Translations under genes and position numbers: made by a program | Part shown: positions 2,704-29,390 of the stretch, piece by piece | Numbering within the stretch: position 1 is the stretch's first letter | Layout: each line of letters opens with the position of its first letter | Source: Candidatus Woykebacteria bacterium | GTDB lineage: Bacteria; Patescibacteriota; Microgenomatia; Woykebacterales; RBG-16-39-9b | Reading direction: 5' to 3' | Assembly (NCBI GenBank): GCA_040876345.1 | Contig: JBBDPM010000006.1 | Coordinates: 6,803 to 70,802 of the forward strand | Length of the DNA: 64,000 nt | Notes under the pieces: model-generated | Databases searched by the model: none | The model's input: only the letters and a program-made list of their open reading frames with translations | Told to the model about the DNA's origin: nothing

Positions 2704-2776
2704 AAGCCCTTCGTACAATGAAGGACAGCCAGACTACCACTGGAAGACGTGGGTTCGAACCCCGCAGGGCTTACCA
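2704..2776 (+). tRNA. tRNA-like element or pseudo-tRNA: perfect 7-bp acceptor stem, T-arm GTGGG/TTCGAAC/CCCGC, encoded CCA; D and anticodon arms non-canonical
   Basis: AAGCCCT...AGGGCTT-A-CCA pair perfectly. The T-loop is TTCGAAC. The only 7-nt anticodon-type loop (ACTACCA, anticodon UAC) has C at positions 33 and 37 and a 4-bp stem. No D-stem can be drawn. Confidence 0.35.
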
Positions 2777-4754: not shown

Positions 4755-6476
4755 ATGAAGTATCCTCTTGAAACAATTAGGCACTCCAGCGCTCACGTAA
4801 TGGCATCTGCCGTAAAAAATTTATTCCCCGGTACAAAACTTGGTATTGGACCCAGAATTGAGAACGGTTTCTATTACGATTTTGACACTAATCACCGCTT
4901 TTCTGAAGAAGATTTCGAAAAAATCGAAAAAGAAATGTTAAAGATAAAAACCCAGAAACTTGAGTTTGAGAGGAGTGAGAAGAGTGTGGATGAAGCTATA
5001 AAATTCTCGGAAAAGTTACCCGAACCGTACAAAGCCGAGCTTATAGAGAATCTTAAAGACCAGGGGGAGAAAAAAGTCTCCTTTTACAAAACCGGGGATT
5101 TTGTGGACCTTTGCCGCGGTCCCCACGTGAAAAACTCAGCCGAAATTGGAGAATTTAAACTTCTCTCTGTAGCCGGTGCTTATTGGAAGGGTAGCGAAAA
5201 AAACAAAATGCTTCAGCGAATCTATGGCACTACCTGGAACACAAAGAACGAGCTGAACGATTATCTAGAAAAACTAAGTGGGGCAAAAAGGAGAGATCAT
5301 AAAAAACTCGGTCAGGAGCTTTCTTTATTCACTTTTTTGCCAGAAGCTCCGGGTATGCCTTTTTGGTATCCGAAGGGTCTGATTATTGTTAATGAGCTAA
5401 AAAGCTACATTCGGGAATTAAACTCAAAATTTGGATATGAGGAGATTTCCACCCCACTACTTGCTAAAAAATCAGTATGGGAAACCTCTGGGCACTGGAA
5501 CCTTTTCCGAGATAATATGTTCACCTTCGACTTGGAAGAGCAAACCTACGCCCTAAAACCTATGAACTGCCCGGAAACCCTACTTCTTTACAATACTAAA
5601 CAATATAGCTATAAGGACTTGCCGGTAAAATGGGCTGACCTTGATCCTCTTCACAGATATGAAGAGTCAGGAACGCTGCACGGCTTGTTTCGGGTAAGAG
5701 GACTATCCCAAGACGATGCTCATGTTTTTTGCGAGGAAGATAAAATAGGAGAGGCCGTTTCGGAAATAATTGAGATGGCCAAGATCGTTTTCAAAACTTT
5801 CGACTTAAAACCCACATTTTATTTATCCACAAGGCCGGACAAAGCGTTGGGAACCCCAAAAACTTGGGAGAGGGCAGAGAAATCTCTAAAGGAAGTATTA
5901 GAAAAGCAAAAAGTAAATTTTGGGATTAAGGAAAAAGACGGAGCCTTTTACGGACCTAAAATTGATCTTCACGTTGAGGATTCTCTAGGAAGAGACTGGC
6001 AGCTTTCAACAATCCAGCTAGATTTTCAAATGCCGGAGAGGTTTTCCGCTACCTACATTGACGATTCTGGCAACAAAAAAACCCCAGTTCTGATACATAA
6101 AGCCCTTTTTGGTTCCTTGGAAAGATTTCTTGGTATTTTAATAGAGCATATCGAAGCAAGGTTTCCAATTTGGCTCTCCCCTGTCCAAACCAAAGTTTTA
6201 CCAATAGCAGAAAGGCACGCTGACTACGCAAGTCAAGTAGTGGAAAAACTTCGAGAAGAGAAAATCAGAGCCGAGACAGACTCGGGAAATGAAACCTTGC
6301 AGTCAAGAATTAGAAACGCCGAATTACAAAAAATCCCGTATATTTTGGTCGTCGGTGACAAGGAGCAGGTTACAAAAAAAATTTCGGTTCGAAAAAGAGG
6401 CTCAAAAGATTTAACTTCAGAGGACCTTGTGGATTTCATAAGACAAGTCAAGAAGCAAATTGAAAACAGGGAATAA
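4755..6476 (+). CDS. thrS: Threonine--tRNA ligase (lacks the N-terminal TGS domain)
   Basis: HSSAHVMA editing-domain motif, class II catalytic core, C-terminal anticodon-binding domain. 573 aa. Confidence 0.9.
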   Translation: MKYPLETIRHSSAHVMASAVKNLFPGTKLGIGPRIENGFYYDFDTNHRFSEEDFEKIEKEMLKIKTQKLEFERSEKSVDEAIKFSEKLPEPYKAELIENLKDQGEKKVSFYKTGDFVDLCRGPHVKNSAEIGEFKLLSVAGAYWKGSEKNKMLQRIYGTTWNTKNELNDYLEKLSGAKRRDHKKLGQELSLFTFLPEAPGMPFWYPKGLIIVNELKSYIRELNSKFGYEEISTPLLAKKSVWETSGHWNLFRDNMFTFDLEEQTYALKPMNCPETLLLYNTKQYSYKDLPVKWADLDPLHRYEESGTLHGLFRVRGLSQDDAHVFCEEDKIGEAVSEIIEMAKIVFKTFDLKPTFYLSTRPDKALGTPKTWERAEKSLKEVLEKQKVNFGIKEKDGAFYGPKIDLHVEDSLGRDWQLSTIQLDFQMPERFSATYIDDSGNKKTPVLIHKALFGSLERFLGILIEHIEARFPIWLSPVQTKVLPIAERHADYASQVVEKLREEKIRAETDSGNETLQSRIRNAELQKIPYILVVGDKEQVTKKISVRKRGSKDLTSEDLVDFIRQVKKQIENRE

Positions 6477-8165: not shown

Positions 8166-8194
8166 TTGACATATTGGATATTTTGTGCTATAAT
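8166..8194 (+). promoter_or_regulatory. Perfect-consensus promoter TTGACA-17-TATAAT
   Basis: TTGACA at 8166-8171, 17-nt spacer, TATAAT at 8189-8194. Confidence 0.6.
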
Positions 8195-8200
8195 AGGCTC

Positions 8201-8301
8201 TTAATTGTGCAGAAGTGAGTTTTTTAGCCTGAATTGGCCATAGTATGGGGAGCTCATGTAGGGCAGGCGTGAGCTTCCCGTATTCGGGCCAATTTTTTTT
8301 T
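8201..8301 (+). ncRNA. Candidate ~100-nt small RNA: consensus promoter followed by a long imperfect hairpin (ATTGGCC...GGCCAAT) and T9
   Basis: Promoter at 8166-8194. Hairpin at 8233-8293 (ATTGGCC/GGCCAAT outer stem, GGGAGCTCA/TGAGCTTCCC inner). T-run at 8293-8301. No ORF with an RBS in between. Confidence 0.4.
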
Positions 8302-8317
8302 ACCCACTCCACACTAC

Positions 8318-8346
8318 TTGACAAATCAAACGTAAATTCTTAGTAT
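8318..8346 (+). promoter_or_regulatory. Promoter TTGACA-17-TAGTAT driving the T-box leader
   Basis: TTGACA at 8318-8323, TAGTAT at 8341-8346. Confidence 0.5.
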
Positions 8347-8352: not shown

Positions 8353-8646
8353 TAACTTAATATTAAAAGCACTGATTCAGAGAGGGCTGATTCGAAAACC
8401 ATACAGAGAGCCAGTTAAGGTGAGAGTCTGGCAGGCGATTAGATCAGTCTATTCACTGAGGAGCTGAAGGCTGAAAAATAATTTTAGTAGGTCATTCCGG
8501 GAACGCCCGTTATAGCGTGATGAACCTTATCACCCTTCAAACAACCGGGTTGAGAGGTTCTAGATTGGTCTTTCTCGGCAACGGGAAGACAAGTAAGGTG
8601 GTACAGCGGCCAAGACTCGCCCTTACAGGGGGGGTCTTTTTTTGTG
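8353..8646 (+). promoter_or_regulatory. T-box riboswitch leader (AAGGTGGTACAGCGG at 8595-8609) with terminator (8614-8645) upstream of aroF-pheS-pheT
   Basis: Near-consensus T-box sequence (consensus AGGGTGGTACCGCG) containing UGGU to pair the tRNA 3' NCCA end. Followed by a GACTCGCCC-TTACA-GGGGGGGTC hairpin plus T8 immediately before the aroF start. Confidence 0.6.
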
Positions 8647-9675
8647 GGAGAACTTATGATTGTAATAATGGAAAAAGATTATTTAAAAAAGGATCTTAAC
8701 TTGGTTATAGATCGAATACATAGAGAAGGGTTAAGAGCCGAGCCAATAATAGGAGTGGAGCGTACAGTTGTTGCCGTAGTCGGGGACATCACAGAAATAC
8801 CAGAAATGAAGTCCAACTTAGAGGAAACGCCTGGAGTGGCCGAAGTTCAAAGAATTAGCACACCATATAAACTCTCTTCTCGGCAAGTGCAGAAAGAAGA
8901 CACTATTGTCGATGTCTCCGGAGTAAAGTTTGGCGCTAAAAATATAGTGGTGATTGCTGGCCCGTGCGCGGTAGAATCTGAAAAGCAAACAGTAGAAACT
9001 GCTATTGCCGTAAAAAAATCTGGGGCGAAGGTTTTACGAGGCGGCGCCTTTAAACCAAGAGCCTCCCCATACAGCTTCCAAGGTTTGGAAAAAGAAGGTT
9101 TGAAAATACTCTCCAAAGCTAGGAAGGAAACTGGACTCCCCGTTGCAACAGAAGTAATTAGCCCAGAGGATGTAGAGCTCGTCTCGGAATATTCTGACAT
9201 CCTCCAAATCGGGGCGAGAAACGCCCAAAACTTTCCCCTTTTAAAGAAGTGTGGAAAAGCAAAAAGACCAATAATACTAAAAAGAGGCCTGGGCGAGACG
9301 ATTGAAGAGTGGTTACTCTCGGCTGAATATATCTTGGAAGGTGGTAATAAAAACGTAATTCTTTGTGAGAGAGGGATAAGAACATTTGAGGTGGCCACTA
9401 GGTTCACCTTAGATATCGATGCAATACCCCTTACTAAAAACCTCTCCCACTTGCCGGTAATTGGGGACCCAAGTCACGGAACAGGGAAAAGAATATTAGT
9501 TAAACCAGTCGCCAAAGCCTGCATTGCCGCTGGTGCTGATGGGCTTATCATTGAGGTTCACCCAAACCCAGAGCAAGCAAAATCTGACTCTCCGCAGCAG
9601 TTGAATTTCAGCGAGTTCGAGATTCTTATGAGGGAGGTCAGGAAAATTGCAAGGGCGGATGGGAGAAAATTATGA
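8644..9675 (+). CDS. aroF: 3-deoxy-7-phosphoheptulonate (DAHP) synthase, type I-beta, with N-terminal ferredoxin-like regulatory domain (Thermotoga-type)
   Basis: IAGPCAVES...VLRGGAFKPRTSPYSFQGL...IGARNAQNF...LKRG...CERGIRTF...GDPSH matches Thermotoga-type DAHP synthase. The true start is probably the ATG at 8656. Confidence 0.85.
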   Translation: MGELMIVIMEKDYLKKDLNLVIDRIHREGLRAEPIIGVERTVVAVVGDITEIPEMKSNLEETPGVAEVQRISTPYKLSSRQVQKEDTIVDVSGVKFGAKNIVVIAGPCAVESEKQTVETAIAVKKSGAKVLRGGAFKPRASPYSFQGLEKEGLKILSKARKETGLPVATEVISPEDVELVSEYSDILQIGARNAQNFPLLKKCGKAKRPIILKRGLGETIEEWLLSAEYILEGGNKNVILCERGIRTFEVATRFTLDIDAIPLTKNLSHLPVIGDPSHGTGKRILVKPVAKACIAAGADGLIIEVHPNPEQAKSDSPQQLNFSEFEILMREVRKIARADGRKL

Positions 9676-9717
9676 AGACTCCGTTAGCAAAAAAGAGCCT
9701 ATGTTATCCTAACTAAA

Positions 9718-10728
9718 ATGAAAAATTTGGAGAAAGTTGAAAAGGAAGCGTTGGAAAAAATAGAAAAGGCCCAAGATAGAAACGAGCTGGAAAGTATCCG
9801 AATTCATTACTTTGGAAGGAAGAGTGGTATTCTAACAATATTAGCCGGGGAGTTGCCAAAACTACCCAACCAAGAGAAAAGAAAAGTCGGACCAGTGTTC
9901 AATAAAGTCAAAAATAGCCTGCAGAAAGCTCTAGCGGAAAAATCTGGGAATTTTCAGGAAGCTAAATCAACTAATACTCAAGAACCCAAAAATTTAGAGA
10001 TGGGAGAAGATTTACCGTTTGACCCAACAATACCAGGTAGGAGCCAAAATATAGCCTCATCCCACCCCTTAACAAGCGTTGTTGATGAGGTTAAGGAAAT
10101 ATTTCACTACCTGGGATTTTCCTGGGTTGATGGGCCAGAGGTAGAACTTGATCTTTACAACTTCCAAAAGCTTTTAATACCAAAGGACCACCCCTCTCGG
10201 GATGTTCAACAAACCTACTATATTAACGACGAGCTGCTTCTGCGAACCCATACTTCCCCAATGCAAGTAAGATATATGGAGACTCATCAGCCTCCAATTA
10301 GAATTATCTCTCCAGGCAGAGCCTACCGACGGGACATGCCAGATGCTACCCATCTTCCCGACTTTTTACAAATTGAAGGCCTTTTAGTTGATACAGAAAC
10401 TTCAATGACCGATTTAATGGGCTCTTTGGATTTTTTTGCAAAGAGAATGTTTGGGGAATCTTCCAGGGTGCGCTTCTACGGCCACAATTTCCCTTACACT
10501 GAGCCGTCAATTGAGATAGAAGTTTTTCACGAAAAGCAAGGCTGGATTGAAATTCTGGGCGCCGGTATGGTTCATCCTGAAGTGCTCCGCGGAAGTGGCG
10601 TAGACCCAGAAAAATATCGCGGCTGGGCTTTTGGCATGGGACCAAACAGATTAGCCATGCTTAAATATGGAATTGATGATATAAGAGCCCTCTACAGTAG
10701 CGACCTTAGGTTTTTAAAACAATTTTAG
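9718..10728 (+). CDS. pheS: Phenylalanine--tRNA ligase alpha subunit
   Basis: HPLT...KDHPSRD...class II motifs FRPSYFPFTEPS-like (NFPYTEPSIE), GWAFGMG. Confidence 0.9.
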   Translation: MKNLEKVEKEALEKIEKAQDRNELESIRIHYFGRKSGILTILAGELPKLPNQEKRKVGPVFNKVKNSLQKALAEKSGNFQEAKSTNTQEPKNLEMGEDLPFDPTIPGRSQNIASSHPLTSVVDEVKEIFHYLGFSWVDGPEVELDLYNFQKLLIPKDHPSRDVQQTYYINDELLLRTHTSPMQVRYMETHQPPIRIISPGRAYRRDMPDATHLPDFLQIEGLLVDTETSMTDLMGSLDFFAKRMFGESSRVRFYGHNFPYTEPSIEIEVFHEKQGWIEILGAGMVHPEVLRGSGVDPEKYRGWAFGMGPNRLAMLKYGIDDIRALYSSDLRFLKQF

Positions 10729-10736
10729 TTTAAATT

Positions 10737-12755
10737 ATGTTAGTACCCCTATCTTGGTTAAAAGATTACGTCAATCTTGAAGAAAACTCAGAGGAATTAG
10801 CCGAAAAACTGGTGTTTTCGGGAACTAAAATCGAAGAGATCTTAAAAAAAGAAGGCGAAACTATCTTTAAACTTGAAATAACTCCTAATCGAGCCGACTG
10901 CTTAGGAATAATCGGAGTGGCCCGCGAAGTAGCAGCGCTCTATGAGAGGGATTTAAAAATCCCGCAGCCATTTTTGGAAACAGTCCAAACTAAAAGAAAA
11001 AAATCCTTGAAGCTTACTCTTAAAGACCCATCGCTTTGCCCTTATTACTCTCTGGGCGTAATTGATAACGTGAGAGTTCAAGAGTCTCCAGACTGGCTTA
11101 AAAAAAGGCTTGAACTAGCCGGGATAAGAGCCATCAACAATGTGGTTGATATAACAAATTACGTAATGATTGAGACAGCGCAACCAATGCACGCTTTTGA
11201 CTTGGACAAAGTCAAAGGGGAGGCGGTTTTGCGCTCTAGTAGAAAGGGAGAAAAAGTGACTACTCTTGATGGGGTAGAGCGGTCATTAAATGAAGGCGCC
11301 ATAATAATTGAGGACTCTGAAAAACTCATTGACCTAGCCGGTTTAATGGGCGGTAAAAACTCTCAAGTTGATAAGGACACATCAACAATTGTACTCCACG
11401 TACCAGTGTATAACCCAGTCTCAATAAGAAAAGCGTCCCAATTTACTGGCCTTAGGACTGAAGCCTCCAACCGCTTTGAAAAAATTCTTGATCCAAACGC
11501 CCACCGCTTTGCCTTTGAAAGAGCCCTTCATCTACTAAAAGTAGAAGCCGAAGGCTCCCTTGCTTCAGAGATTAAAAGCGTCAACTATCCAGTTAAAAGC
11601 TCCCCGTTTACGATACTTACTGACGAAATAGATGAAATTCTTGGAGTCAAAATACCGGAAAAGGATATAGTTAACATTTTAGTGAATCTTGGTTTTGAGG
11701 TCCTGCCAAGCCCCAGTACAGAAGGTCACGCCCTTGAAGTAAGGCCACCGACCTGGAGAGGTGATGTAAAAACAACCGAGGACATCGCCGAAGAGGTGGG
11801 TCGAATCTGGGGCTATAATAGCTTTCCCAAAACCCTGCCAAAAGGGGATATACCGACTCACGAAGACTCGTTTAAACCAGACTGGGAAAGGAAGATAAAG
11901 GGTCTTTTACCATCTATTGGTTTTTACGAAACTTACACTCACGCTCTGATAAGCGCGCAAAACCTAGCAAGGCTTTCCATAAGGGAGACCGAGATTTTGA
12001 AAGTCAATAACCCAATGACAGTTGATTTTGAATACCTTCGCCCCACGCTCTTGAGTGGACTTTTGGAAGGGGTAAGTTTAAACCTTCGAAATTTTAAAGA
12101 CGTATCTTTGTTTGAACTTGGAAGAGCCTTTTCAAAAAAAATAGACTCAAAAACAAAGCTCCCGCTTCAGCCGAAAACACTCACCGCTGTCTCTACTTCC
12201 ATGCGATTTTCGCAAATGAAGGGGGTTGTGGAAGAAATACTTACCAAGCTAAATATTAAACAGGCAAGTTTTGAGATTCTTGAAAAAGAGGGAGTTTGGG
12301 ACAAAAATTTTTCGGCGAAGATTAGTACAGTAAAAGACGAGGTAGGAATTGTGGGCAAAATAGACAGCAAAATCACCAAGAATATATCGATTGATAAAGA
12401 AGTATTCGGATTTGAGATTGATTTTGATAAACTAGTAAAACATGCCTCAAGTGAGATTAAGTATAAGTCTCTCCCAAAATTTCCAGTGGTGTATGAGGAT
12501 TTATCAATTCTCGTTGATCAAAAAATAGCGGTTCAGGAAATACTGGACACAATAGAATCCCTTAAAGAAAAACGGCTCCGATCCGCCACAATTGGTGAGG
12601 TTATACCTTGGCAAGAAAACAAAAAATCAATTCTACTCCACTTGGAATACTCTGATAATCAAAAGACCCTCATCGATGATGAAGCAGCAAACATTCGAAA
12701 GAAAATTGTTGAAAAACTAAACAGTAATTTAGATATAGAGTTAAGAAGTTTGTAG
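10737..12755 (+). CDS. pheT: Phenylalanine--tRNA ligase beta subunit (short form, 672 aa)
   Basis: MLVPLSWLKDYV N-terminus, B3/4 and B5 domain order, C-terminal FDX-ACB-like end. Confidence 0.88.
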   Translation: MLVPLSWLKDYVNLEENSEELAEKLVFSGTKIEEILKKEGETIFKLEITPNRADCLGIIGVAREVAALYERDLKIPQPFLETVQTKRKKSLKLTLKDPSLCPYYSLGVIDNVRVQESPDWLKKRLELAGIRAINNVVDITNYVMIETAQPMHAFDLDKVKGEAVLRSSRKGEKVTTLDGVERSLNEGAIIIEDSEKLIDLAGLMGGKNSQVDKDTSTIVLHVPVYNPVSIRKASQFTGLRTEASNRFEKILDPNAHRFAFERALHLLKVEAEGSLASEIKSVNYPVKSSPFTILTDEIDEILGVKIPEKDIVNILVNLGFEVLPSPSTEGHALEVRPPTWRGDVKTTEDIAEEVGRIWGYNSFPKTLPKGDIPTHEDSFKPDWERKIKGLLPSIGFYETYTHALISAQNLARLSIRETEILKVNNPMTVDFEYLRPTLLSGLLEGVSLNLRNFKDVSLFELGRAFSKKIDSKTKLPLQPKTLTAVSTSMRFSQMKGVVEEILTKLNIKQASFEILEKEGVWDKNFSAKISTVKDEVGIVGKIDSKITKNISIDKEVFGFEIDFDKLVKHASSEIKYKSLPKFPVVYEDLSILVDQKIAVQEILDTIESLKEKRLRSATIGEVIPWQENKKSILLHLEYSDNQKTLIDDEAANIRKKIVEKLNSNLDIELRSL

Positions 12756-12761
12756 TCTCAA

Positions 12762-12797
12762 CGCCGTCTGAAAGTGCTTAAGCAACCTCAGACGGCG
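12762..12797. terminator. 10-bp perfect hairpin (CGCCGTCTGA/TCAGACGGCG) at the pheT end and island boundary; no T-tract
   Basis: Inverted repeat at 12762-12771 and 12788-12797 with a 16-nt loop. Confidence 0.4.
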
Positions 12798-12834
12798 CGT
12801 TGTGTTGGACCGCATTCGGACAAGGCAGTTGACC

Positions 12835-13053
12835 TCATTCCGGCGCTTTCACAACAAAGGCGATCTTCACTTCTCTCCGCCCAAAGACCTCTTCTACCCG
12901 CCAACCAACAAGGTGAGCCGCCTCACCGTAGTAGTACTCCGTAAGGGCAGCATCACGTTCCTCGGTCGTGTAGAGCCCATCTCGATACAGGTCAAGAAGA
13001 GCCGCTACGTGCTCCTCAACTATCCGTTCAGGATCGTCGGTGGTAGTAACCAT
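12835..13053 (-). CDS. Hypothetical acidic 72-aa protein (GC-rich island)
   Basis: ATG at 13051-13053 (minus strand) preceded by GAGGAAG. The product begins MVTTTDDPERIVEEH. Confidence 0.45.
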   Translation of the reverse strand: MVTTTDDPERIVEEHVAALLDLYRDGLYTTEERDAALTEYYYGEAAHLVGWRVEEVFGRREVKIAFVVKAPE

Positions 13054-13421
13054 AACAACTTCCTCATCAGAACAGCAGCCGCAGCTCCCTAACAACATGC
13101 AGCACTTATACCTCAGGAGATTCGAAGATCCCCTCCTGGCAAAATGCCACAGACCTCTCTCTGATGAGCACCGAAAGGGCAGCCAGGAGCTGCCGGCAGC
13201 CTAGGCGATCGGGCCAAACAATGTACGAGACATCCCAGTTGGGTGGGGGCCAGGGGGTGGCACAAGGCCGCCCAACACCCTAAACTGGTGAACTCGCAAG
13301 GCTCAGGTGAGCCGTCCAGCCCTGCCTTGGGAAAGGGTAGCTCTGGGGAGTTCTTCGGTGGGACCCCATCCAGCAAACCCTTTCGGTGCTCATTTAGACC
13401 GCTCAGACCAACCGCCTCATG

Positions 13422-13973
13422 CTATCCTATCGCGCGAATCTTGACTTGGGCTGGTCGGGCTGTTACAACCGGGCCCGGTTGATAACCTCCCCACACGCAA
13501 CGAATCTCTTCCCTATGCGCACGGAAGAAGGTGGGGAACCAAGTGAGGTATTCGAGAACCTCCTCACGAATCCGCCTGTTGATGCTGTACGGGCGGCTTT
13601 CGTTTTGCACTACTTCCCGCCACGTTTGAACTCCGTCAGCACCCACCGCAAGATCCCCCTCGAGCACTGCCCCGAAACGTTGCAGATACCGCTCCACCTC
13701 GAGGCGAAGGCGCTCAAAGTTCTGTAACAGCCTGACTACCTGGTCGTCGTATCCTGGGAAGGGGTTAGGACCCCTAATCACCAAGTCCTTAGCCTTGCCC
13801 CTGGCAAGGTAAGCGAGCCAGAAGATCGTATCCACTGAACCGCGGACCAAACCTTCGGCAAGGACGAGATCGTGTCTTTCGAAACCGATGTTGAGTAGGA
13901 ATTCCCCCGCGAAGTCTTCCGCAGGTCTATCCTCACCAGTTCCCACCCCCTGTGAAGAATCTGGTAGGGTCAT
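13422..13973 (-). CDS. Hypothetical ~183-aa protein (GC-rich island)
   Basis: ORF with an internal ATG preceded by AAGGAGG. No known motif recognised. Confidence 0.4.
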   Translation of the reverse strand: MTLPDSSQGVGTGEDRPAEDFAGEFLLNIGFERHDLVLAEGLVRGSVDTIFWLAYLARGKAKDLVIRGPNPFPGYDDQVVRLLQNFERLRLEVERYLQRFGAVLEGDLAVGADGVQTWREVVQNESRPYSINRRIREEVLEYLTWFPTFFRAHREEIRCVWGGYQPGPVVTARPAQVKIRAIG

Positions 13974-16728: not shown

Positions 16729-16822
16729 CGTATAAATATAAGTTCTAATATTTTACCATTCTTTAGTTGTCTTGCGCAAAATCTTGATATATAATTACGC
16801 CCTGGAGACAAGTTTTGTTACT

Positions 16823-18019
16823 ATGGAAAAATTTGAACTATTATTTAAACATCTCGAGGAAATCTATCCTTCAAGAGAAAATCTAGTTACGCTGCTGAAA
16901 GAGAGCAAGAAGCTCAAAATATACTTAGGTATTGATCCAACAAGCCCCGAAATTCACCTGGGTCACGCAATCGCTCTCTGGAAACTAAAAGAATTCCAAG
17001 AAGCCGGCCACCAAGTAATTTTGCTAGTTGGAGATTTTACCGCAATGATTGGAGATCCCTCCGACAAAGAAGCCACTAGAAAAAGCCTGAGCCGGGAAGA
17101 AGTTTTAGCTAACACTGCGAACTTTAAGAAACAAGCGTCAAAGATCCTTAATTTTTCCGGAGAAAACGCCGCAAAACTTGAATTTAATAGCCACTGGTTG
17201 GCAAAGCTAACCCTATCTGATCTATTAGATCTTGCCGCAAAAGTAACTGTGCAACAACTCTACGAAAGAGATATGTTCCAAAAAAGACTCAAGGGTGGGA
17301 AACCAATTGGACTGCATGAGTTTTTGTATCCCCTTCTGCAGGGTTACGACTCGGTGGCGATGGCGGTTGATGCTGAACTTGGCGGTAGCGACCAAACTTT
17401 CAATATGCTTTTTGGCCGAACACTGCTTAAAAGCCTGAAACATAAGGAAAAGTTTGTATTAACACTTCCTTTACTTGAGGGGACAGATGGTCAAAAGATG
17501 AGTAAATCCTACGGCAATACTATAAATATTTCTAATTCTTCCACAGATATGTTCGGTAAAGTAATGTCCTTGAAAGATGAGCTTATTATAAAATACTTTG
17601 ATCTTTGCACCAAGGTAGGCTCTGCTGAGATCAAGAAGATGTCCGACCAAATCAAATCTATAAACCCAATGGAATTGAAGAAAAAACTAGCGTTTGAAAT
17701 TGTAGCAATTTACCACGGTAAAAAGGCAGCTCAAGACTCCCAAAAAGAGTTTAGTAGGGTGTTTCAAGAGGGAAAAGCCCCAAAGGGTAAACGAATGTTT
17801 CTCCCAAATAAAATTAACGCTGACGCCACCACAATTTTAGAGAAGCTATCGATGGTAAAAAGTAAAAGTGAAGCTAGAAGATTAATCGAGCAGGGCGGAG
17901 TCTACATAAACGGAAGAAAGGTGGACTCACTATCTGACACCTTTTCACTTGAAACAGGAACGCTTGTTCAAATAGGCAAACTTAGATCAGTATCAGTTGA
18001 AATAAGAAAGGATACATGA
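16823..18019 (+). CDS. tyrS: Tyrosine--tRNA ligase
   Basis: HIGH-type motif (HLGH), KMSKS, C-terminal S4 domain. Confidence 0.9.
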   Translation: MEKFELLFKHLEEIYPSRENLVTLLKESKKLKIYLGIDPTSPEIHLGHAIALWKLKEFQEAGHQVILLVGDFTAMIGDPSDKEATRKSLSREEVLANTANFKKQASKILNFSGENAAKLEFNSHWLAKLTLSDLLDLAAKVTVQQLYERDMFQKRLKGGKPIGLHEFLYPLLQGYDSVAMAVDAELGGSDQTFNMLFGRTLLKSLKHKEKFVLTLPLLEGTDGQKMSKSYGNTINISNSSTDMFGKVMSLKDELIIKYFDLCTKVGSAEIKKMSDQIKSINPMELKKKLAFEIVAIYHGKKAAQDSQKEFSRVFQEGKAPKGKRMFLPNKINADATTILEKLSMVKSKSEARRLIEQGGVYINGRKVDSLSDTFSLETGTLVQIGKLRSVSVEIRKDT

Positions 18020-22320: not shown

Positions 22321-23037
22321 ATGGGAAATCTAACGATCCACGTTTTAACTCTCTTTCCAGATTTCTTCAAAAGCCCCCTTTCAGAGAGCATTCTTGCAAG
22401 GGCAATTAAAAAAGGCTTAATTTCAGTTCAAATTCACAATTTAAGAACTTTTGGCCTTGGGGAAAGGAAAACGGTAGACGATAATCCATACGGTGGTAGC
22501 GCTGGTATGGTTCTCAGAGTGGACGTTTTGGCCAAGGCGGCCGAGAGCGTCTCCTCAAAAGAACGAGGGGGAAAGCCGTATGTAGTACTCCTTGACCCAA
22601 AAGGGAAAAGGTATGACCAGGGAAGAGCCGAAAAACTTTCAAAAAAGAAGGAGGTACTCCTAGTTTGCGGTCATTATGAAGGGGTGGATCAAAGATTTGC
22701 AGATTATTTTTGTGACGAGGTAGTCTCTGTCGGAGATTTTGTTCTCACCGGCGGGGAGACAGCGGCTCTTGTCTTAATAGATTCTATTGTTCGTTTACAG
22801 CCTGGAGTGCTCGGTAAGAAAGAGTCTCTTCAATCCGAATCGTTCTCCTTGACTAAGACTGAGGGTAAAAATAGTAGAATCTTTGACTTTCCAACCTACA
22901 CACGGCCAGAGAGCTTTCAGGGCAAAAAAGTCCCCCCAATTCTTTTGAGTGGTAACCACGCGAAGATAAAACAGTGGAGAGCTAATAAAGCACGCCAACT
23001 TACTTTGAAATTTAGGAAAGATTTAGTACAAGGTTAG
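22321..23037 (+). CDS. trmD: tRNA (guanine37-N1)-methyltransferase
   Basis: HVLTLFPDFF...NPYGGSAGMVL TrmD motifs. Confidence 0.9.
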   Translation: MGNLTIHVLTLFPDFFKSPLSESILARAIKKGLISVQIHNLRTFGLGERKTVDDNPYGGSAGMVLRVDVLAKAAESVSSKERGGKPYVVLLDPKGKRYDQGRAEKLSKKKEVLLVCGHYEGVDQRFADYFCDEVVSVGDFVLTGGETAALVLIDSIVRLQPGVLGKKESLQSESFSLTKTEGKNSRIFDFPTYTRPESFQGKKVPPILLSGNHAKIKQWRANKARQLTLKFRKDLVQG

Positions 23038-23792
23038 TTGCCAAAAGGGTTTGCGACCCCAGTCCGACCTTCTTGTATTTGAATATCCGTGAAGTTAATA
23101 AATTTATCAATTAGTAGAAGAGTACGTTCATTATCAGCAGAAAGCGCAGGAATCTGCTCCGCAGCAAGATCATCGCTAGAAAACTCAACTGGTCTAAAAG
23201 GAATTGAGAGTTGAAATAAAATCTGAAATTTACTGCCTTCAGAATCGGTTGCGGCAAGGGAGTCAATAGATGATATTCGCTTTGCCATCTCAAGCTTTTC
23301 TAAAAAGGCCTCAAGAGACGAAACGCTTCCACTTAAAGAAAGTTTTAAAATTAAAGAGTCCTTAGAAAGCTGCCCTGAGGGAGCCGCCGGTTGAGTTTGC
23401 GCGGCAGTAGCACTTGCTGTTGCTGCTTTGGCAGACTCTGTACTTACTTTCCCTGGCGTCAAGCTTATTTCGTCAACTGCTAAGTTAGATCCAAGCGCTA
23501 AATTCTGAAGCCCAACAACAAGCGGGGCAACTTGTTTCCCGGCAGGCAGAGCAATATTTGCTTCGGAAAGCTTTTGGTTTATTTCAGCTTCATCAAGGGA
23601 GTTTAGAGTACCTAATTTATTTGAAAGGTTTCTCAACCTTTCACGATCGTTATTTAGACTATTATTAGTCTCTCTAACATTCCTTAAAAGGGGCAATATC
23701 ACAAAAGGAATAATGACAAGTATTGTTACTGCTATAAGAGCCGGTACCGCCAAGGCTTTTAAATTTTTCAGATCGATATTAAAAAGTTTCAT
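23034..23792 (-). CDS. pilO: Type IV pilus assembly protein PilO-like
   Basis: N-terminal TM, coiled-coil, position after pilN. Confidence 0.65.
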   Translation of the reverse strand: MKLFNIDLKNLKALAVPALIAVTILVIIPFVILPLLRNVRETNNSLNNDRERLRNLSNKLGTLNSLDEAEINQKLSEANIALPAGKQVAPLVVGLQNLALGSNLAVDEISLTPGKVSTESAKAATASATAAQTQPAAPSGQLSKDSLILKLSLSGSVSSLEAFLEKLEMAKRISSIDSLAATDSEGSKFQILFQLSIPFRPVEFSSDDLAAEQIPALSADNERTLLLIDKFINFTDIQIQEGRTGVANPFGN

Positions 23793-24357
23793 CTTTGGCC
23801 ACCAGTCCTCTGGGTATGAAAGTCATATCGATTACAAATTTATAAGAACTTTTGTTTTCATTGCTTAGATTGCTAAGAATCACCTTATTAAACTTAGGTG
23901 TGTAACGCTCGGAGATAATTGCTTTTATAAGTTTGCTTAAAGAAGCCGAATTGTTAGCAACCCCACCAATACTTACGTCTCCATCACTATTAACGTCAAT
24001 GTTCTCGATCTTGACTGCCCCAGACTCCTCGGCTAAGTTTGATATATTGGCGACAGCACTTGATACTGGTACTTCCTCATCCAAAGTCTTCTGGATTTGA
24101 TTAAGCTTATCCACCAGGGCACGTTGGGAAATTTCCTTCTCTTTCTGAGCGACTATTTCACCTTCCAATCTTTGTGATTCTTTTTCCACACGGGATCTTG
24201 TTGTTTGAAGAAAGAGCTGGTATGAAAATATGCCGACTAAAATAGCCGAAACTCCAAGTAAGGCTCCTATTGAGGATACGTTGAGTTTGCGCTTATAGAC
24301 TTCCTTCTTTGCTTCGTCTTCGGCGATTTGTGGTAGTAAGTTTATACCTTGAGCCAT
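23779..24357 (-). CDS. pilN: Type IV pilus assembly protein PilN
   Basis: INLLP N-terminal motif plus TM helix. Confidence 0.75.
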   Translation of the reverse strand: MAQGINLLPQIAEDEAKKEVYKRKLNVSSIGALLGVSAILVGIFSYQLFLQTTRSRVEKESQRLEGEIVAQKEKEISQRALVDKLNQIQKTLDEEVPVSSAVANISNLAEESGAVKIENIDVNSDGDVSIGGVANNSASLSKLIKAIISERYTPKFNKVILSNLSNENKSSYKFVIDMTFIPRGLVAKDETF

Positions 24358-24362
24358 ATTAA

Positions 24363-25406
24363 TTAGATTGATTTTAAACCAAGACCCACGGCAACAGTGT
24401 AAGAAGTGCCGTCAGTGACAAGTCTCTGGGATACTTGGGAAGGTAGTGAGATTCCTTCCCACGGATTTCCCAGCTGCACTTCCAAACCTAAAGCCTCAGC
24501 CAGATATAACACCAAGCCGGGCAGTTTTGCAGTCCCTCCGGTAAGAACAACTCTCTTAACCGGCGACTCAGGGTGTTTGCCAACGTAGTATGCAAGCGCT
24601 CTTCTTATCTCATTGACAACAACATCAAATATTGGCTTTATTGCTTGCATCACTTTACCCTCAAGCTGAGTTGCATCAAGTCCATAAGTTTTCATATATT
24701 CGGTGGCCTGATCCAGCTCAAAACCAAGTTCTTGAGCTACACCGCGAGCAAGTGCTAACCCGCCAGTAGCAATTGACCTGGTAAAATTTATTTGGTTTGC
24801 ACTAACAATAGATAGATCAGTAGTCGAGGCCCCAATACTAATAATCATGGTGGTGGGGGTGCCTTCAACTCTCTGGACTAAGGACCTGACCACGGCGGTG
24901 ATTTCTGTCTCAAGAGCAATTGCGGAAAGTCCAGCCGTTTTCATAATTCGTAAATACCTATTGATTAAAACTTTTGGGGCGGCAACAAGCAGAACTTCTA
25001 CTTTTCCACCGGCAGAAGGAGCTGCAACCTTTGGGTGTGAGAGTATCTGCCAATCAAGACGCACCTCAGTCATTGGTATTGGAACGTATTGCTCTGCTTC
25101 CCACTGTATTGCACTTCTTACTTCCTTGTCAGAAAGGCTAGGAAGCTCAACAACTCTTGTAAATATTTGCGACTCAGGCAAAGCCGTTATCACTTTATCA
25201 GTGCTTATATGAGCCTCGTGATGAAGTTTTTTTATAGTTTCGGAAAGTAGAATAATGTCTTCTTCGGAATCAGATGTTGCGCTTTGGGCGGGTGTAGGAA
25301 CTTGGCCGGCTGCTATAAAAACTGGCCGACTAGTTTGACCACCCAGCTGAACAGCTTTTATGCTATGCGTTCCGATATCAAGACCAAAATGATTAAGGGC
25401 AGGCAT
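24363..25406 (-). CDS. pilM: Type IV pilus assembly ATPase-fold protein PilM
   Basis: Actin-like fold; FGLDIGTHSIKAVQL. Confidence 0.85.
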   Translation of the reverse strand: MPALNHFGLDIGTHSIKAVQLGGQTSRPVFIAAGQVPTPAQSATSDSEEDIILLSETIKKLHHEAHISTDKVITALPESQIFTRVVELPSLSDKEVRSAIQWEAEQYVPIPMTEVRLDWQILSHPKVAAPSAGGKVEVLLVAAPKVLINRYLRIMKTAGLSAIALETEITAVVRSLVQRVEGTPTTMIISIGASTTDLSIVSANQINFTRSIATGGLALARGVAQELGFELDQATEYMKTYGLDATQLEGKVMQAIKPIFDVVVNEIRRALAYYVGKHPESPVKRVVLTGGTAKLPGLVLYLAEALGLEVQLGNPWEGISLPSQVSQRLVTDGTSYTVAVGLGLKSI

Positions 25407-25562
25407 GCTTTAGTAAGTAGTAAATTGATTACTAGTCATTAATTAACTATATAAATAGTAACATAGTGCAGAGGAGGCTGGCAAGTACCTACAATAAGGG
25501 GTTAGAGATTAGTTAGTTTATTTTGTCCTACTAACCTATAATTAACTAAGCGCTAACTTCTT

Positions 25563-26534
25563 TTACTTGGTGAGATTTGTACCTGAAAATAGTACGTAGT
25601 CAAAAATGGCTGGTAAGGCCGGGAATTGGCGAACTACCTTTAGCTTCCTCGTAACCCCAGAATTAGTAGTGCCGGTAGACTCAATTTCAGATCCTTGAAT
25701 TGGTAGATCCCAACCATTACCCTTAACTGCTATCGGATGGGCAACAAGGTTGTACAAAAACCTAATCCTCGCAAGTACAGGCACACTTGCATTACCAATC
25801 CCTTCAAGATCCAAAAGGGCTGAGTTACAGTCACTAATACCACTTCTGATATCAAAAGTCTGCACAAATTCGAAGTCAATCTTGCCGACATTAGTATCTG
25901 TACCAGGTGGCGTACTCACATCATCCGGCGCATCCGTACTATTAAGGCAGAAATTATTACCAGCTCCTCCACCAATACGACCATTATTTGGATCAAATGC
26001 AAACTTTCGTAGCTTAAAGGCCCCACCTTCCAAATACACCACCGTCACTTCCATCGCCGGTGCATTTGCTCCACGCCCAATCCCTTCATGACCCCAAAAA
26101 ATATCAATATTGGCAGGGTTTCCAGCAGCCGGTACTGGGCTTCCACTACCCAAGTTATTAAAATCAACAAGCAAACTTATTTGCACCACTTCGTCTTTAC
26201 TCACTTCGCTTGGAAAAGAAAAGGCGTTAGACCCAGCACTTATATCTTTAACTGAAATTTTAGCTTTTGTTTGGTTTAAGGTGGAGAAATCTAATTCTGG
26301 CAAAGTGCCGCTAAAGGAAGAGTCCCCCTCAAGCTTCTTAAGTGCTTCTTCTACTCCAGCCTCAGCTGCAAAATAAGCTCTGTTGGATTCATCGCTTGTA
26401 GTTGTTGTACGAATGTCAGTAATGGACCTTGAAGCAACAGAGAGCACAATCGCGAGCCCGACTACTAAAACAAGAAGAAAAACTATCAATATTTGACCGG
26501 ACTGCTCTTTAGTGTGTTGGGAAGTTTCTTTCAT
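25563..26534 (-). CDS. PilX-like / minor-pilin-associated protein (N-terminal TM, large extracellular domain)
   Basis: N-terminus QSGQILIVFLLVLVVGLAIVL resembles a PilX_N-type anchor. Sits within the pilus locus. Confidence 0.45.
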   Translation of the reverse strand: MKETSQHTKEQSGQILIVFLLVLVVGLAIVLSVASRSITDIRTTTTSDESNRAYFAAEAGVEEALKKLEGDSSFSGTLPELDFSTLNQTKAKISVKDISAGSNAFSFPSEVSKDEVVQISLLVDFNNLGSGSPVPAAGNPANIDIFWGHEGIGRGANAPAMEVTVVYLEGGAFKLRKFAFDPNNGRIGGGAGNNFCLNSTDAPDDVSTPPGTDTNVGKIDFEFVQTFDIRSGISDCNSALLDLEGIGNASVPVLARIRFLYNLVAHPIAVKGNGWDLPIQGSEIESTGTTNSGVTRKLKVVRQFPALPAIFDYVLFSGTNLTK

Positions 26535-26613
26535 TTCAGGCAGGGCTTTAAAATTTTAAGCCTTAATTAAATGATAAACTCTACTTCAGTAGGTAGTCAA
26601 GTACTATTATGAT

Positions 26614-27351
26614 CTAGGCGGCGACATTACCTATGCAGCTCACCACTACCATATCGTGATATCCAGAAGAGTCTGTCCAGGTAACCACTACTGATACTTG
26701 CTTAGATTCATCATAATAGAGTCCATCGCTATCTGAGTCATAATCGTTACATTTACTCAGACCCCCATCCACGACTCTTGTATCAGCGACATACAGAGCT
26801 CTTTTGAAATTTACACCACCAATATTAACCTCAAAGTATGGCTCAGAATCCCCATTACCATGAAGACACCAGGAGTAAGAGTGGGAAGATGGTAGGGCAC
26901 CCCCTGTCGAGCAGTCAGTTGGGTTAGGCTCATCCGGTTCGTGAATACCGTATCTGTGACCATAAATAGGGCTTCTTGTGTTGCCCACAGCTACAAATTT
27001 GGTAAGTACGGGCTCATCACATAAAGGTTCTGTAGGGCAGCCGGATATGGTTTCGGTGATATCACATTCATAAAGCTTGCTAAAACTTGTGTAACCGGCT
27101 GCACACGGGGCTACCGGATTTTGCATTGTAATCACAGCTTTTGGATCATCCAAACTCCTGATACTCATCACTACCTCTAAACTTTGTTGGGCGAGTTTGC
27201 TTGCTACTTCTTGATTCTTGGAAAAAGTTGCGTTTCGGTTGGCACGGGCGGCAAGACCAAGTATTGCGGTAACTATTAGCGTACCGACGGCTATAGCGAT
27301 CACAACCTCAACTAATGTTTGGCCTTTATTGGCAGGATCCTTAGCATTCAT
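26614..27351 (-). CDS. Type IV prepilin-like protein (class III signal KGQTLVE)
   Basis: G|QTLVEVVIAIAV prepilin cleavage and hydrophobic helix. Paralog of 27945-28655. Confidence 0.8.
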   Translation of the reverse strand: MNAKDPANKGQTLVEVVIAIAVGTLIVTAILGLAARANRNATFSKNQEVASKLAQQSLEVVMSIRSLDDPKAVITMQNPVAPCAAGYTSFSKLYECDITETISGCPTEPLCDEPVLTKFVAVGNTRSPIYGHRYGIHEPDEPNPTDCSTGGALPSSHSYSWCLHGNGDSEPYFEVNIGGVNFKRALYVADTRVVDGGLSKCNDYDSDSDGLYYDESKQVSVVVTWTDSSGYHDMVVVSCIGNVAA

Positions 27352-27966
27352 TTAAAAAACTCTTGTGCCAACGGTAGTTTCAAAAGGGAGATTTATTTGG
27401 TAATCATTTCTGGTAGGGGCGCCTATTCCTTGGGCAACTGTGAAAGCAAATAAAACAATTTGCTGTTGATTTACAGTGCCAGTAATTGTAAACACATCGT
27501 TTGCCCCTGCCACATTAACATTATCACATACAATATTTACTCCTGAGGTACTATCAGTATTGGTCAGAACCTCAAGGTTTCCGCTGAGTTGAATCTCTCT
27601 TGTAAACCTTCCATTATCACTGCCTGTAGATCCCACGCATTTCCAGTCTACATACTCGTCACGATGTTTAATAGTTATACCGTTAGTTCCGTTCGGTGTA
27701 ATACTGAGAGCCGGGCGAATATCTCGTTCAAAAAGATCTATTATAATTGCAGCGTTTTGACGCGCTTCGTTAGTTACTTGTGTTTTGTTCTGGGAGCGCA
27801 GAATTCCAATAAATACGCTGGAAGCAATCCCTATTAAAATACCCAGAATTGCCGTGACCACCAGAAGCTCAAGGATAGTGAATCCTTGGCTACCAAAAAC
27901 CTTGTTTTTTTCATTATCAACCTTAAATTTGCGTTTCATGCTATTTAAGTCTTCTTGCCAATACAA
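27352..27966 (-). CDS. Minor pilin-like protein (GFTILELLVV)
   Basis: Prepilin motif SQGFTILELLVVTAILGIL. Confidence 0.8.
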   Translation of the reverse strand: MYWQEDLNSMKRKFKVDNEKNKVFGSQGFTILELLVVTAILGILIGIASSVFIGILRSQNKTQVTNEARQNAAIIIDLFERDIRPALSITPNGTNGITIKHRDEYVDWKCVGSTGSDNGRFTREIQLSGNLEVLTNTDSTSGVNIVCDNVNVAGANDVFTITGTVNQQQIVLFAFTVAQGIGAPTRNDYQINLPFETTVGTRVF

Positions 27967-28655
27967 CTAACATCTGATTTTCGGTGTGTACCTGCTTGGT
28001 CTGTCCACTTAACAACAATCGTGAATTGCTTGATGTGTCGGAAATTAGCATTTTGATTGCATTTACTAACTGGGGGAGTATCCGCAATAAAAAGCCCTGT
28101 TGTGTAAGTCACTCCACCGATGTTGATTAAGAAATCTTTTTGATCATCACCGTTACCATGAATACACCAAGAAGATGATGCAGGAATATTTTCAGGCGCA
28201 ATATTAGCTTCATCAGTCCGGCAAGGTAAGGCGGGCAAGTACGTAGGATCTCCTGAGACATGAAAAGCGTATCTTAATCCGTAGCTAGGGTTTACATAAT
28301 TATCAGAGGTGCTGACAAAATTTGTTAACGGTGGATCGTCGCAATGAGAGCCGCAAGGAGTATCTGGAAGATCACATTCGAAAAGACCGTTAAAGTTTGT
28401 AAGCTGGTTACAAGGCGCACCATCTTTTCTGGGAATTATAGCCCTCGGATCATTCAGGGCTTTTATATTCCTTACTATCTCTATCCCTTGTTGACCAAGT
28501 TTGGAAGCTTGCTCTTGATTTCTGGCAAAATTTGCGTTGCGATTGCTTCTGGTGGCTAGTCCTAAAATTGCGGTTATGAATATTGCCCCGACTGCCAAGG
28601 CAATCAAAACTTCAATTAAAGTCTGCCCTTTTTTGGATTTTAAATAAGTCTTCAT
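27945..28655 (-). CDS. Type IV prepilin-like protein (KGQTLIE), paralog of 26614-27351
   Basis: Near-identical N-terminal 60 aa to the 26614 gene. Confidence 0.8.
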   Translation of the reverse strand: MKTYLKSKKGQTLIEVLIALAVGAIFITAILGLATRSNRNANFARNQEQASKLGQQGIEIVRNIKALNDPRAIIPRKDGAPCNQLTNFNGLFECDLPDTPCGSHCDDPPLTNFVSTSDNYVNPSYGLRYAFHVSGDPTYLPALPCRTDEANIAPENIPASSSWCIHGNGDDQKDFLINIGGVTYTTGLFIADTPPVSKCNQNANFRHIKQFTIVVKWTDQAGTHRKSDVSCIGKKT

Positions 28656-28670
28656 GTCATCTAATAACTA

Positions 28671-29390
28671 CTAGTTTGCCGTAATTTGGCCTGATTTATC
28701 CACAGTTACAGAATGGGTTGTAGTACCTTCTGTAAGCGAAATTACGGCCCGACGACAATTTGGATACGTTATGTCACTTATTAACGTCGCAGTAATAAGA
28801 TCGATGGTACCATAGTAGAATTGTATATCCCGAAGAGACTTGAAATTTATTACTAAAATGTCGCCTGCTGTATACCCACAATCTGTACCATCAGATTTTG
28901 TTACGCTGATAGAGCTAACTTTAACATTCGGCGGTAGTTTCACTATATCTGTTGGGCCCCCTTGAATATCCCCAGGTGGGGTTCCTGGGGCGGGTGTACA
29001 AGCCTGGGCTCGATTGTATTTTATTGAGGTGGGCAACGTGGATTTATCAAAGGCTAAGTAGTGCCCGCGAAGATTATAATCGTCAATACTGTCCGATAAA
29101 GCGGCTCCGCTACTATTATAGGCGTCCGTTTTGCAACTTTGGTGCTTAAGCCCAGATACAGCTCTGTTTTGGGATTCGCGAAACTTGGATTTTAGTTCTG
29201 AAGCACCCCTAGCCACGTTTTGCCCCCGATTAAAGCTGTTATAAGCTGCCACCGCTCCACCAGTAAGAAGACCAATAATCGCAACTACAACAAGAAGCTC
29301 GATAAGCGTGAAGCCTTGGGAAAAATTAGGAACTATAAATGAGAAATGAGATTCAGTCTTTTTTGAATTATATTTCGGGGCAGAGAGCAT
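28671..29390 (-). CDS. Type IV prepilin-like protein (GFTLIELLVVVAIIGLL)
   Basis: Class III signal peptide motif. Confidence 0.8.
   Translation of the reverse strand: MLSAPKYNSKKTESHFSFIVPNFSQGFTLIELLVVVAIIGLLTGGAVAAYNSFNRGQNVARGASELKSKFRESQNRAVSGLKHQSCKTDAYNSSGAALSDSIDDYNLRGHYLAFDKSTLPTSIKYNRAQACTPAPGTPPGDIQGGPTDIVKLPPNVKVSSISVTKSDGTDCGYTAGDILVINFKSLRDIQFYYGTIDLITATLISDITYPNCRRAVISLTEGTTTHSVTVDKSGQITAN

Follow-up and report, generated by a model that had tools for sequence, protein, structure and literature searches.

We analyzed a 64,000-nucleotide (nt) stretch of DNA (hereafter, the window) from a metagenome-assembled genome (MAG) of Candidatus Woykebacteria. In this window, the genes for 3-deoxy-7-phosphoheptulonate synthase (DAHP synthase, DAHPS) and for the two subunits of phenylalanine--tRNA ligase (pheS and pheT) are preceded by a leader that is very probably a class I, transcription-attenuating T-box riboswitch specific for tRNA-Phe, its response to the tRNA being predicted. 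Every testable structural element of a class I T-box is found in this leader save the S-turn of stem I, and its score lies below the Rfam gathering threshold. A preliminary description, made from the letters alone, had proposed such a T-box ahead of these three genes in a reduced genome. The family match, the covariation among related leaders, the specifier codon, and the identities of the downstream genes bear this out, and the host does belong to the Candidate Phyla Radiation (CPR; Patescibacteria).

Family match, fold, and predicted switch of the leader

The leader matches the Rfam T-box family RF00230 over its full length (model positions 1-219 of 219) with 84.6 bits. The expectation value (E) is 6e-19 for the region and 7e-17 when the whole window is searched with all 4227 Rfam families, so that a match by chance is excluded, and a scan of the 64 kb with E-value reporting finds this single T-box. 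The alignment to the model shows every canonical element from the kink-turn (K-turn) to the antiterminator, the stem I S-turn excepted. In addition, 40 nt are inserted in the variable linker after stem IIA/B, the same place at which Firmicute examples are expanded.

Then, we evaluated the fold by comparison. Five homologous leaders, from distinct Woykebacteria lineages (loci L083, L169, L170, L172, and L173), were recovered via relatives of PheS and DAHPS; the PheS proteins of these five are 67-71% identical to that of the window. The six leaders were aligned with MAFFT, which is structure-free, and the Rfam structure plus the IIA/B pseudoknot was projected onto the alignment through the window row. 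Paired cells amount to 90.2%, against 32-43% when the 3' partners are slid by 1-3 columns, a percentage that is flattered because the projected structure was obtained by fitting a consensus to one of the six sequences. Changes on both sides of a pair, a count less affected by this bias, are present in 18 pairs (29 cells), against 2-4 pairs in the slid controls. None of 500 column shuffles reached the observed values of pairing and covariation.

In stem I, pairing reaches 82-100% in helices 1-5, and two-sided changes across the six leaders affect 9 of the 21 pairs in these helices. Stem I holds the three parts of the tRNA-elbow platform, namely the K-turn at its base, the AG bulge motif ACAGAGAG (8403-8410; AGAGA in the model), and the distal loop motif GGUGAGA (GGUGNRA in the model), the positions of these motifs being invariant or nearly so in the six leaders. 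Stem II (helix 6) is 92% paired, with two pairs changed on both sides, and in stem III compensatory double changes affect six of the seven pairs. In the pseudoknot, the pair 8503/8518 is A-U, G-U, U-A, or G-C depending on the leader, the other pairs being invariant.

The promoter that had been proposed for the leader at 8318-8346 is indeed there. It matches the sigma-70 consensus at 10 of 12 positions in a consensus scan, and TTGACA-17-TA(G/A)(T/G)AT (TTGACA-17-TAGTAT in the window) stands at the same place in all six leaders. We infer a transcription start at about 8353.

The specifier codon is UUC. In the Rfam alignment, UCUAUUCA (8448-8455) forms the 3' side of the specifier loop, and its UUC-A is aligned to the model columns in which Tyr T-boxes have UAC-A. 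UUCA-CUG is invariant in the six leaders, while the base before it varies (A in five, G in L173), which excludes the frame AUU. The codon thus sits at the 3' end of the loop, is followed by a purine, and fits the genes downstream (DAHPS, pheS, and pheT). Among Phe T-boxes, about 99% use this codon (PMC7778990). The preliminary description had left the choice between Phe- and Tyr-tRNA sensing open; the invariant codon decides for Phe and against Tyr.

At the 3' end of the leader, two alternative helices compete. The preliminary description had placed a near match to the T-box consensus, AAGGTGGTACAGCGG, at 8595-8609, and this is its exact position. Both the T-box sequence and the bulge UGGUACA are invariant in the six leaders. 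Downstream, the terminator hairpin GACTCGCCC/TTACA/GGGGGGGTC lies at 8614-8636, and ViennaRNA extends its stem by two positions on either side. The predicted energy is -16.3 kcal/mol for 8610-8646 (z-score -3.4; 1 of 200 shuffles as good), and in a 57-nt segment that includes the terminator 3' arm the terminator forms with -21.6 kcal/mol. The terminator 5' arm (8614-8623) reuses CUCGCCCUU (8616-8624), the 3' strand of the antiterminator. The shared segment, CGCCCUUAC, is found in all six leaders, as is a GC-rich hairpin with a run of 5-7 U, and the two helices are mutually exclusive in all of them. Two details of the preliminary description need correction: the T-run has seven T and not eight, and what the terminator overlaps is the 3' strand of the antiterminator and not the T-box sequence itself.

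Among the six leaders, the terminator is the more stable helix, with -10 to -21.6 kcal/mol; the canonical antiterminator has -2.9 to -3.9 kcal/mol. Folded without the terminator 3' arm, five of the six (L083, L169, L170, L172, and L173) adopt the canonical antiterminator as their minimum free energy (MFE) fold; for the window leader the MFE is a different fold, the canonical antiterminator having -2.9 kcal/mol. A weak antiterminator is expected of an element that needs stabilization by a tRNA.

From these elements we infer tRNA binding, the direction of regulation, and the co-transcription of pheST along the following lines. Transcription would start at about 8353, and stem I would offer its UUC to the GAA anticodon of tRNA-Phe, the AG bulge and the distal loop being expected to dock the tRNA elbow. 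If tRNA-Phe is uncharged, its free 3' end ACCA would pair with UGGU (8599-8602) in the antiterminator bulge, and this pairing would stabilize the weak antiterminator and block the stronger terminator. RNA polymerase would then read into the DAHPS gene and, no terminator lying between, onward into pheS-pheT. If tRNA-Phe is charged, the terminator would form and transcription would stop at about 8643.

TABLE 1 Features of the T-box leader and of the genes downstream, in window coordinates
Feature	Position	Strand	Basis and details
Promoter, sigma-70-type	8318-8346	+	-35 TTGACA 8318-8323; 17-nt spacer; -10 TAGTAT 8341-8346
T-box leader	8363-8627	+	RF00230 match
Stem I	8369-8464	+	Pairs projected from Rfam alignment
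K-turn/GA motif, base of stem I	GCACUGA 8369-8375 with GGAGC 8460-8464	+	Rfam alignment
AG bulge UACAGAGA	8402-8409	+	Rfam alignment
Distal loop UAAGGUGAGAG	8416-8426	+	Rfam alignment; contains GGUGAGA
Specifier UUC (Phe), followed by A8455	8452-8454	+	3' side of specifier loop
Stem II with GAA/AGUA S-turn elements	8467-8496	+	Rfam alignment
Stem IIA/B pseudoknot	8498-8518	+	IIA CGG 8498-8500/CCG 8507-8509; IIB ACGC 8503-8506/GCGU 8515-8518
Stem III	8568-8590	+	Six-leader alignment
Antiterminator	8595-8624	+	Rfam alignment; helix A1 8595-8598/8621-8624, helix A2 8606-8609/8617-8620
T-box sequence AAGGUGGUACAGCG	8595-8608	+	12 of 14 positions match the consensus AGGGUGGUACCGCG
Antiterminator 7-nt bulge UGGUACA	8599-8605	+	UGGU predicted to pair with tRNA 3' end ACCA
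Intrinsic terminator	8612-8643	+	Stem 8612-8638, U7 8637-8643; terminator scan and ViennaRNA
DAHPS, type I-beta	8656-9675	+	NF006421, 484.8 bits (cut-off 335)
Putative extended -10 promoter TGTTATCCT	9702-9710	+	Ends 7 nt before pheS ATG
pheS, phenylalanine--tRNA ligase alpha subunit	9718-10728	+	TIGR00468, 312.9 bits (cut-off 237)
pheT, phenylalanine--tRNA ligase beta subunit, 672 aa	10737-12755	+	TIGR00472, 550 bits

Downstream genes and the reach of the control

The leader is preceded by thrS, a tsaC-like gene, infC, rpmI, and rplT, and followed by DAHPS, pheS, and pheT. The DAHPS carries an N-terminal ferredoxin-like regulatory domain (PF18152, residues 1-68) and the domain PF00793 (residues 89-330), and its sequence, like that of PheS, is identical to a protein of the Candidatus Woykebacteria MAG GCA_040881185.1. 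Its start is most likely the ATG at 8656, with the ribosome-binding site (RBS) GGGAG at 8646-8650, rather than the GTG at 8644; the terminator most likely does not, as had been described, end at the start of this gene (there called aroF). PheT lacks the N-terminal ~146 residues of its model (residues 29-670 align to TIGR00472 positions 147-798), and the short form, of 667-672 residues, is present in all Woykebacteria relatives.

Thirteen nucleotides separate the end of the leader from the start codon of DAHPS, and DAHPS is thus certainly gated by the T-box. The gene pheS follows DAHPS after 42 nt, and pheT follows pheS after 8 nt. No plus-strand terminator is predicted in 9400-13500, so antitermination should bring read-through into pheST as well.

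The region before pheS carries a second signal. Of 12 Woykebacteria loci, 10 have a TGTTATCYT box, similar to an extended -10 box, shortly before the ATG of pheS (7 nt away in seven, 5-8 nt in the other three). It is kept in the loci devoid of a T-box as well, save L086 and L176, and no Shine-Dalgarno (SD) sequence precedes pheS in any of the 12. Across the window, an extended -10 box (TGnTAnnnT) lies 4-10 nt before the start of 7 of 57 genes, against 0.7% of random positions (a 17-fold enrichment), and an SD sequence is found at 8 of the 57. This suggests that leaderless transcription is frequent in this CPR genome, and pheS probably has an extended -10 basal promoter of its own, giving a leaderless mRNA. 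Other examples of the box are found at xerC (44653-45579; 7 nt) and at the gene starting at 45645 (9 nt).

It could therefore be argued that the T-box controls DAHPS only, pheS and pheT being essentially independent of it and expressed from the promoter at 9702-9710 as a leaderless mRNA. The conservation of the box in 10 of 12 loci, the absence of an SD sequence before pheS, and the enrichment of this geometry at gene starts all favor this explanation. Conversely, with no terminator in the 42-nt gap between DAHPS and pheS, read-through is unavoidable whenever the T-box is open. Furthermore, the T-box is well kept in L170 and L172, where DAHPS is gone, and in L170 it abuts pheS (37 nt away) while the -10 box there is degenerate (TGTCTT), which argues that the effect of the T-box on pheST is under selection. 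We thus consider control of DAHPS alone rather unlikely. With the T-box acting on both, it would add starvation-induced transcription to a basal level of pheST. The earlier claim of control over DAHPS and pheST is in this way upheld for DAHPS and narrowed for pheST, for which only added read-through, on top of its own -10 box, is probable.

Observations against a Phe-specific switch and alternative explanations

Several observations weigh against the leader being a working T-box for tRNA-Phe. The first is the score: the gathering threshold of RF00230 is 93 bits, and a default scan, which applies it, returns tRNAs only and shows no T-box. The five related leaders score 74.6-86.6 bits, so that all six lie below the threshold. 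The RF00230 scan had been named in the preliminary description as a check. The match it gives is significant, and the default setting would wrongly have spoken against a T-box. The low scores stem from the missing S-turn, the changed last nucleotide of the bulge, and the linker insertion, the match not being partial.

The second is the S-turn itself. This motif of the stem I specifier loop (AGUA/GAA, loop E) is thought to present the specifier, and it is absent from all six leaders. The Rfam consensus has it in upper case, as a strongly conserved motif, and the Firmicute alignments that we inspected (L052, L065, and L082) contain it. At its position, the 5' side reads AGAGGG in the window and AAAGGG or AAGGAG in the other leaders, and the 3' side reads UCUAUUCA in the window and CCAUUCA in the others. 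Two extra pairs lengthen the stem I helix (G-C in most leaders, G-U in the window, and a compensatory A-U in L172), and a compact 4x5 internal loop, AAAG/AUUCA (A-UUC-A), replaces the S-turn in the six leaders.

Moreover, the seventh nucleotide of the antiterminator bulge is A and not C in all six leaders (UGGUACA), and the conserved promoter-like box directly before pheS means that pheST may be largely T-box-independent. Lastly, the gene for tRNA-Phe, the partner in the predicted codon-anticodon and discriminator pairing, was found neither in the window nor in ten Woykebacteria loci; the sole tRNA called in the window is a tRNA-Val(GAC). A tRNA-Phe is expected to have a GAA anticodon and an A73 discriminator, and the bulge UGGU would fit A73. 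As tRNA-Tyr likewise carries A73, the bulge is no discriminator between Phe and Tyr.

The scores below the threshold in all six leaders, the lost S-turn, and the altered bulge could also be read as signs of a decaying, non-functional relic that arrived with a horizontally acquired DAHPS and no longer switches, the more so as that DAHPS is itself decaying in sister lineages. Neutral decay, however, would have broken the compensated helices, the specifier, the promoter, and the terminator. Instead, every helix is kept by compensatory changes (the 18 pairs and 29 cells above) in six lineages whose PheS proteins are mutually 67-85% identical. The specifier and the T-box sequence are invariant, the promoter and the terminator are intact in all six, and L170, L172, and L173 have retained the leader although their DAHPS gene is lost or a pseudogene. 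A relic is thus very unlikely.

Even less probable is a class II-like T-box acting on translation, which would sequester the RBS and terminate no transcription. Translational T-boxes exist in Actinobacteria (PMC7778990, PMC11297988), and the DAHPS RBS lies just 3 nt past the U-run. On the other hand, the hairpin followed by 5-7 U in six of six leaders is the hallmark of an intrinsic terminator, and stem I, unlike that of class II leaders, is full-length and includes the K-turn, the AG bulge, and the distal loop. The RBS also lies outside both alternative helices, which makes the switch transcriptional and not translational.

Attenuation through a leader peptide was also considered and rejected. 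The Phe_leader family (RF01859) matches the terminator alone, with 15.2 bits against a gathering threshold of 55 (E 9.5), and the sole short open reading frame (ORF) with two Phe codons (~8207-8245) sits in an insertion specific to the window.

Finally, a different specifier, either the UAC at 8402-8404 (in CCAUACAGAGAG), which would make the T-box Tyr-specific, or the UUC at 8391-8393 (in GGCUGAUUCGAAAACC), can be dismissed as improbable in the extreme: Tyr (UAC) T-boxes do precede DAHPS in the Firmicute loci L052, L065, L071, and L082, and the A73 of tRNA-Tyr is equally compatible with the UGGU bulge, but the canonical specifier position holds the invariant UUC plus A and the operon includes pheST. 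Both codons had been listed as candidates in the preliminary description, and neither is conserved in the relatives. The UAC (there in CAUACAGAGAG) belongs to the AG bulge, part of the tRNA-elbow platform and no codon-presenting loop, and reads AAU in L083 and UAA in L172. The UUC (in GAUUCG, 8389-8394) belongs to the 5' strand of the stem I helix, the corresponding sequence being AUCGCC in L083 and AACCAA in L172.

Evolution of the proposed cassette, known systems, and host range

The T-box and DAHPS show different combinations among the Woykebacteria relatives. DAHPS is intact in L083, where the T-box is present, and in L084, of which only 37 nt of upstream sequence survive. In L169 (2586-3461), DAHPS is reduced to residues 60-339, the ferredoxin-like domain being missing, and a gap of 13 nt separates the end of the T-box from this core. 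In L173 (553-973), the T-box is followed by a DAHPS pseudogene, in which residues 1-104 are joined out of frame to residues 297-339; the internal deletion and the frameshift leave a 111-residue ORF with the ferredoxin-like domain only. L170 and L172 have the T-box and no DAHPS, and L166, L167, L174, L176, and L086 have neither, rplT and pheS being ~200 nt apart.

Such a T-box, persisting with DAHPS intact, truncated, pseudogenized, or absent, next to relatives devoid of both, has the look of an inserted cassette. Promoter, Phe T-box, and DAHPS look like a self-contained unit inserted, in one subclade, between a conserved hairpin element (described below) and the pheS promoter. Thereafter, several lineages would have lost DAHPS in part or in full and retained the T-box. 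DAHPS divergence (65-76%) resembles that of PheS (67-73%), a similarity consistent with a single early gain, at the root of the ~70%-identity clade, and repeated decay afterward. The neighbor-joining tree of PheS is star-like at ~70% identity, compatible with a single gain and repeated loss or with lateral spread of the cassette through the conserved flanks. A cassette with its own -35/-10 promoter, and a DAHPS that is among the few window genes with an SD sequence, fit a foreign origin.

We looked for the origin of the cassette in other genomes. Among 80 DAHPS loci outside this clade, from species-representative genomes, none has pheS adjacent to DAHPS. T-boxes among these 80 occur in Firmicute or Mollicute loci only, and the closest DAHPS homologs (L003-L037; 57-63% identical, taxonomically mixed) have no T-box nearby, so that no donor was found. 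Of 80 PheS loci from Joint Genome Institute (JGI) metagenomes, none has a T-box motif, and L086 (58%) is the single close one. Among the annotated genes of the window (4.7-16.7 kb and most ORFs of 23-63 kb, about 20 ORFs being unscanned), DAHPS is the sole gene of the shikimate pathway. It is an uncommon gene in CPR genomes and has the appearance of a temporary acquisition. No T-box is found at the window genes thrS (4755-6476) and tyrS (16772-18019), even with E ≤ 0.01 as the limit. Aminoacyl-tRNA synthetase genes are therefore not generally under T-box control here, in keeping with the arrival of the Phe T-box within a cassette.

A conserved, unannotated small-RNA-like unit lies at 8166-8305 (+), between rplT and the T-box promoter. 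It begins with a perfect extended sigma-70 promoter (GCCCCATAGTCTTGACA-17-TGnTATAAT, 8166-8194) and continues with a 25-bp hairpin, with loop AGGGCAG, and a T-run. The apical 25 nt (CATGTAGGGCAGGCGTGAGCTTCCC) are invariant, and the lower stem has eight pairs with compensatory changes. Its core recurs in each of the 13 Woykebacteria-type loci covering the region (L086, L166-L170, and L172-L176 included), with or without a T-box; it is found in none of 162 other loci and has no Rfam match. It could be an abundant small RNA of ~70-105 nt or a protein-binding element.

Elsewhere in the window, a weak tRNA-like match lies at 2704-2773 (+), within ~800 nt without a called gene in the NCBI-derived locus L085. 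It scores 32.5 bits with RF00005, just over the gathering threshold of 29, and is not called by ARAGORN. The acceptor stem and T-arm are good, the D-arm is poor, and the anticodon loop ACUACCA is aberrant (C at position 33); this may be a tRNA pseudogene or the remnant of an integration site. On the minus strand, a cluster at 23-36 kb was suspected from its gene sizes to be a His/Trp/aro operon, and this was rejected: it is a type IV pilus cluster (23034-36530) with PilM, a GspG-like pseudopilin, PilC, PilT, PilB, and many unannotated small genes, a content typical of CPR and unrelated to the T-box.

The closest known systems are the class I T-boxes of Firmicutes (RF00230; e.g., tyrS, pheS, and glyQS of Bacillus subtilis). 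The order of the elements is the same, from the K-turn through the antiterminator with its UGGN bulge and the competing terminator with U-run, and the UUC specifier is shared with Phe T-boxes (PMC7778990). The leaders described here differ in their Patescibacteria/CPR host, in the 4x5 loop that stands in place of the AGUA/GAA S-turn, in the bulge (UGGUACA and not UGGNACC), and in that all six members lie below the gathering threshold. In Firmicutes, type I-beta DAHPS genes are preceded by T-boxes with either UUC (Phe; L038, L048, L050, and L053) or UAC (Tyr; L052, L065, L071, and L082). The DAHPS enzymes behind them are 50-57% identical to that of the window and share the ferredoxin-like domain. 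Unlike the Woykebacteria leaders, these Firmicute leaders keep the canonical S-turn and ACCGCG, and most of them pass the Rfam threshold.

Two other systems offer partial parallels. In Escherichia coli, the cluster thrS-infC-rpmI-rplT-pheMST presents the same conserved neighborhood, with transcription attenuation of pheST in response to tRNA-Phe charging. There, the charging is sensed by ribosome stalling on a Phe-rich leader peptide, whereas the leaders described here have no conserved leader peptide and would bind the tRNA directly. The class II T-boxes of Actinobacteria (e.g., Mycobacterium ileS) have in common with these leaders the discriminator domain with UGGN bulge and a non-canonical specifier loop in stem I. 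They differ in having an ultrashort stem I and a sequestered RBS, compared with the full-length stem I and the intrinsic terminator found here.

T-boxes are textbook regulators of Gram-positive bacteria. Published hosts are Firmicutes, Actinobacteria, Chloroflexi, Deinococcus-Thermus, and a few delta-proteobacteria (Geobacter) (PMC3766115). We found no open-access paper on T-boxes in CPR/Patescibacteria, Saccharibacteria and Microgenomates included, a description outside open access being possible. The CPR host, the stem I without S-turn, and the joining of DAHPS to pheST behind one leader thus appear to be new, while the T-box mechanism and the control of DAHPS by Phe T-boxes in Firmicutes are already known. 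Taken jointly, the results could describe the first documented T-box lineage of CPR, invisible to default Rfam scans and working without an S-turn, in which a cassette was acquired and then co-opted to pheST after the decay of its cargo, with the stages preserved in sister lineages. This joint account is tentative, although quite possible as a whole.

The significance of the finding is moderate, since the mechanism is not new and Phe T-boxes on DAHPS exist in Firmicutes. Nevertheless, a verified T-box clade in CPR extends the host range of these regulators to ultra-small and largely regulator-poor bacteria. With six of six members at 75-87 bits, the curated Rfam threshold misses the whole lineage, and censuses of CPR riboswitches are probably undercounts. 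The clade could also show, as a natural experiment, whether a specifier can be presented without the stem I S-turn. Finally, its members form a clear evolutionary series: a cis-regulatory RNA survives the loss of the gene it first preceded and then sits directly on the neighboring one.

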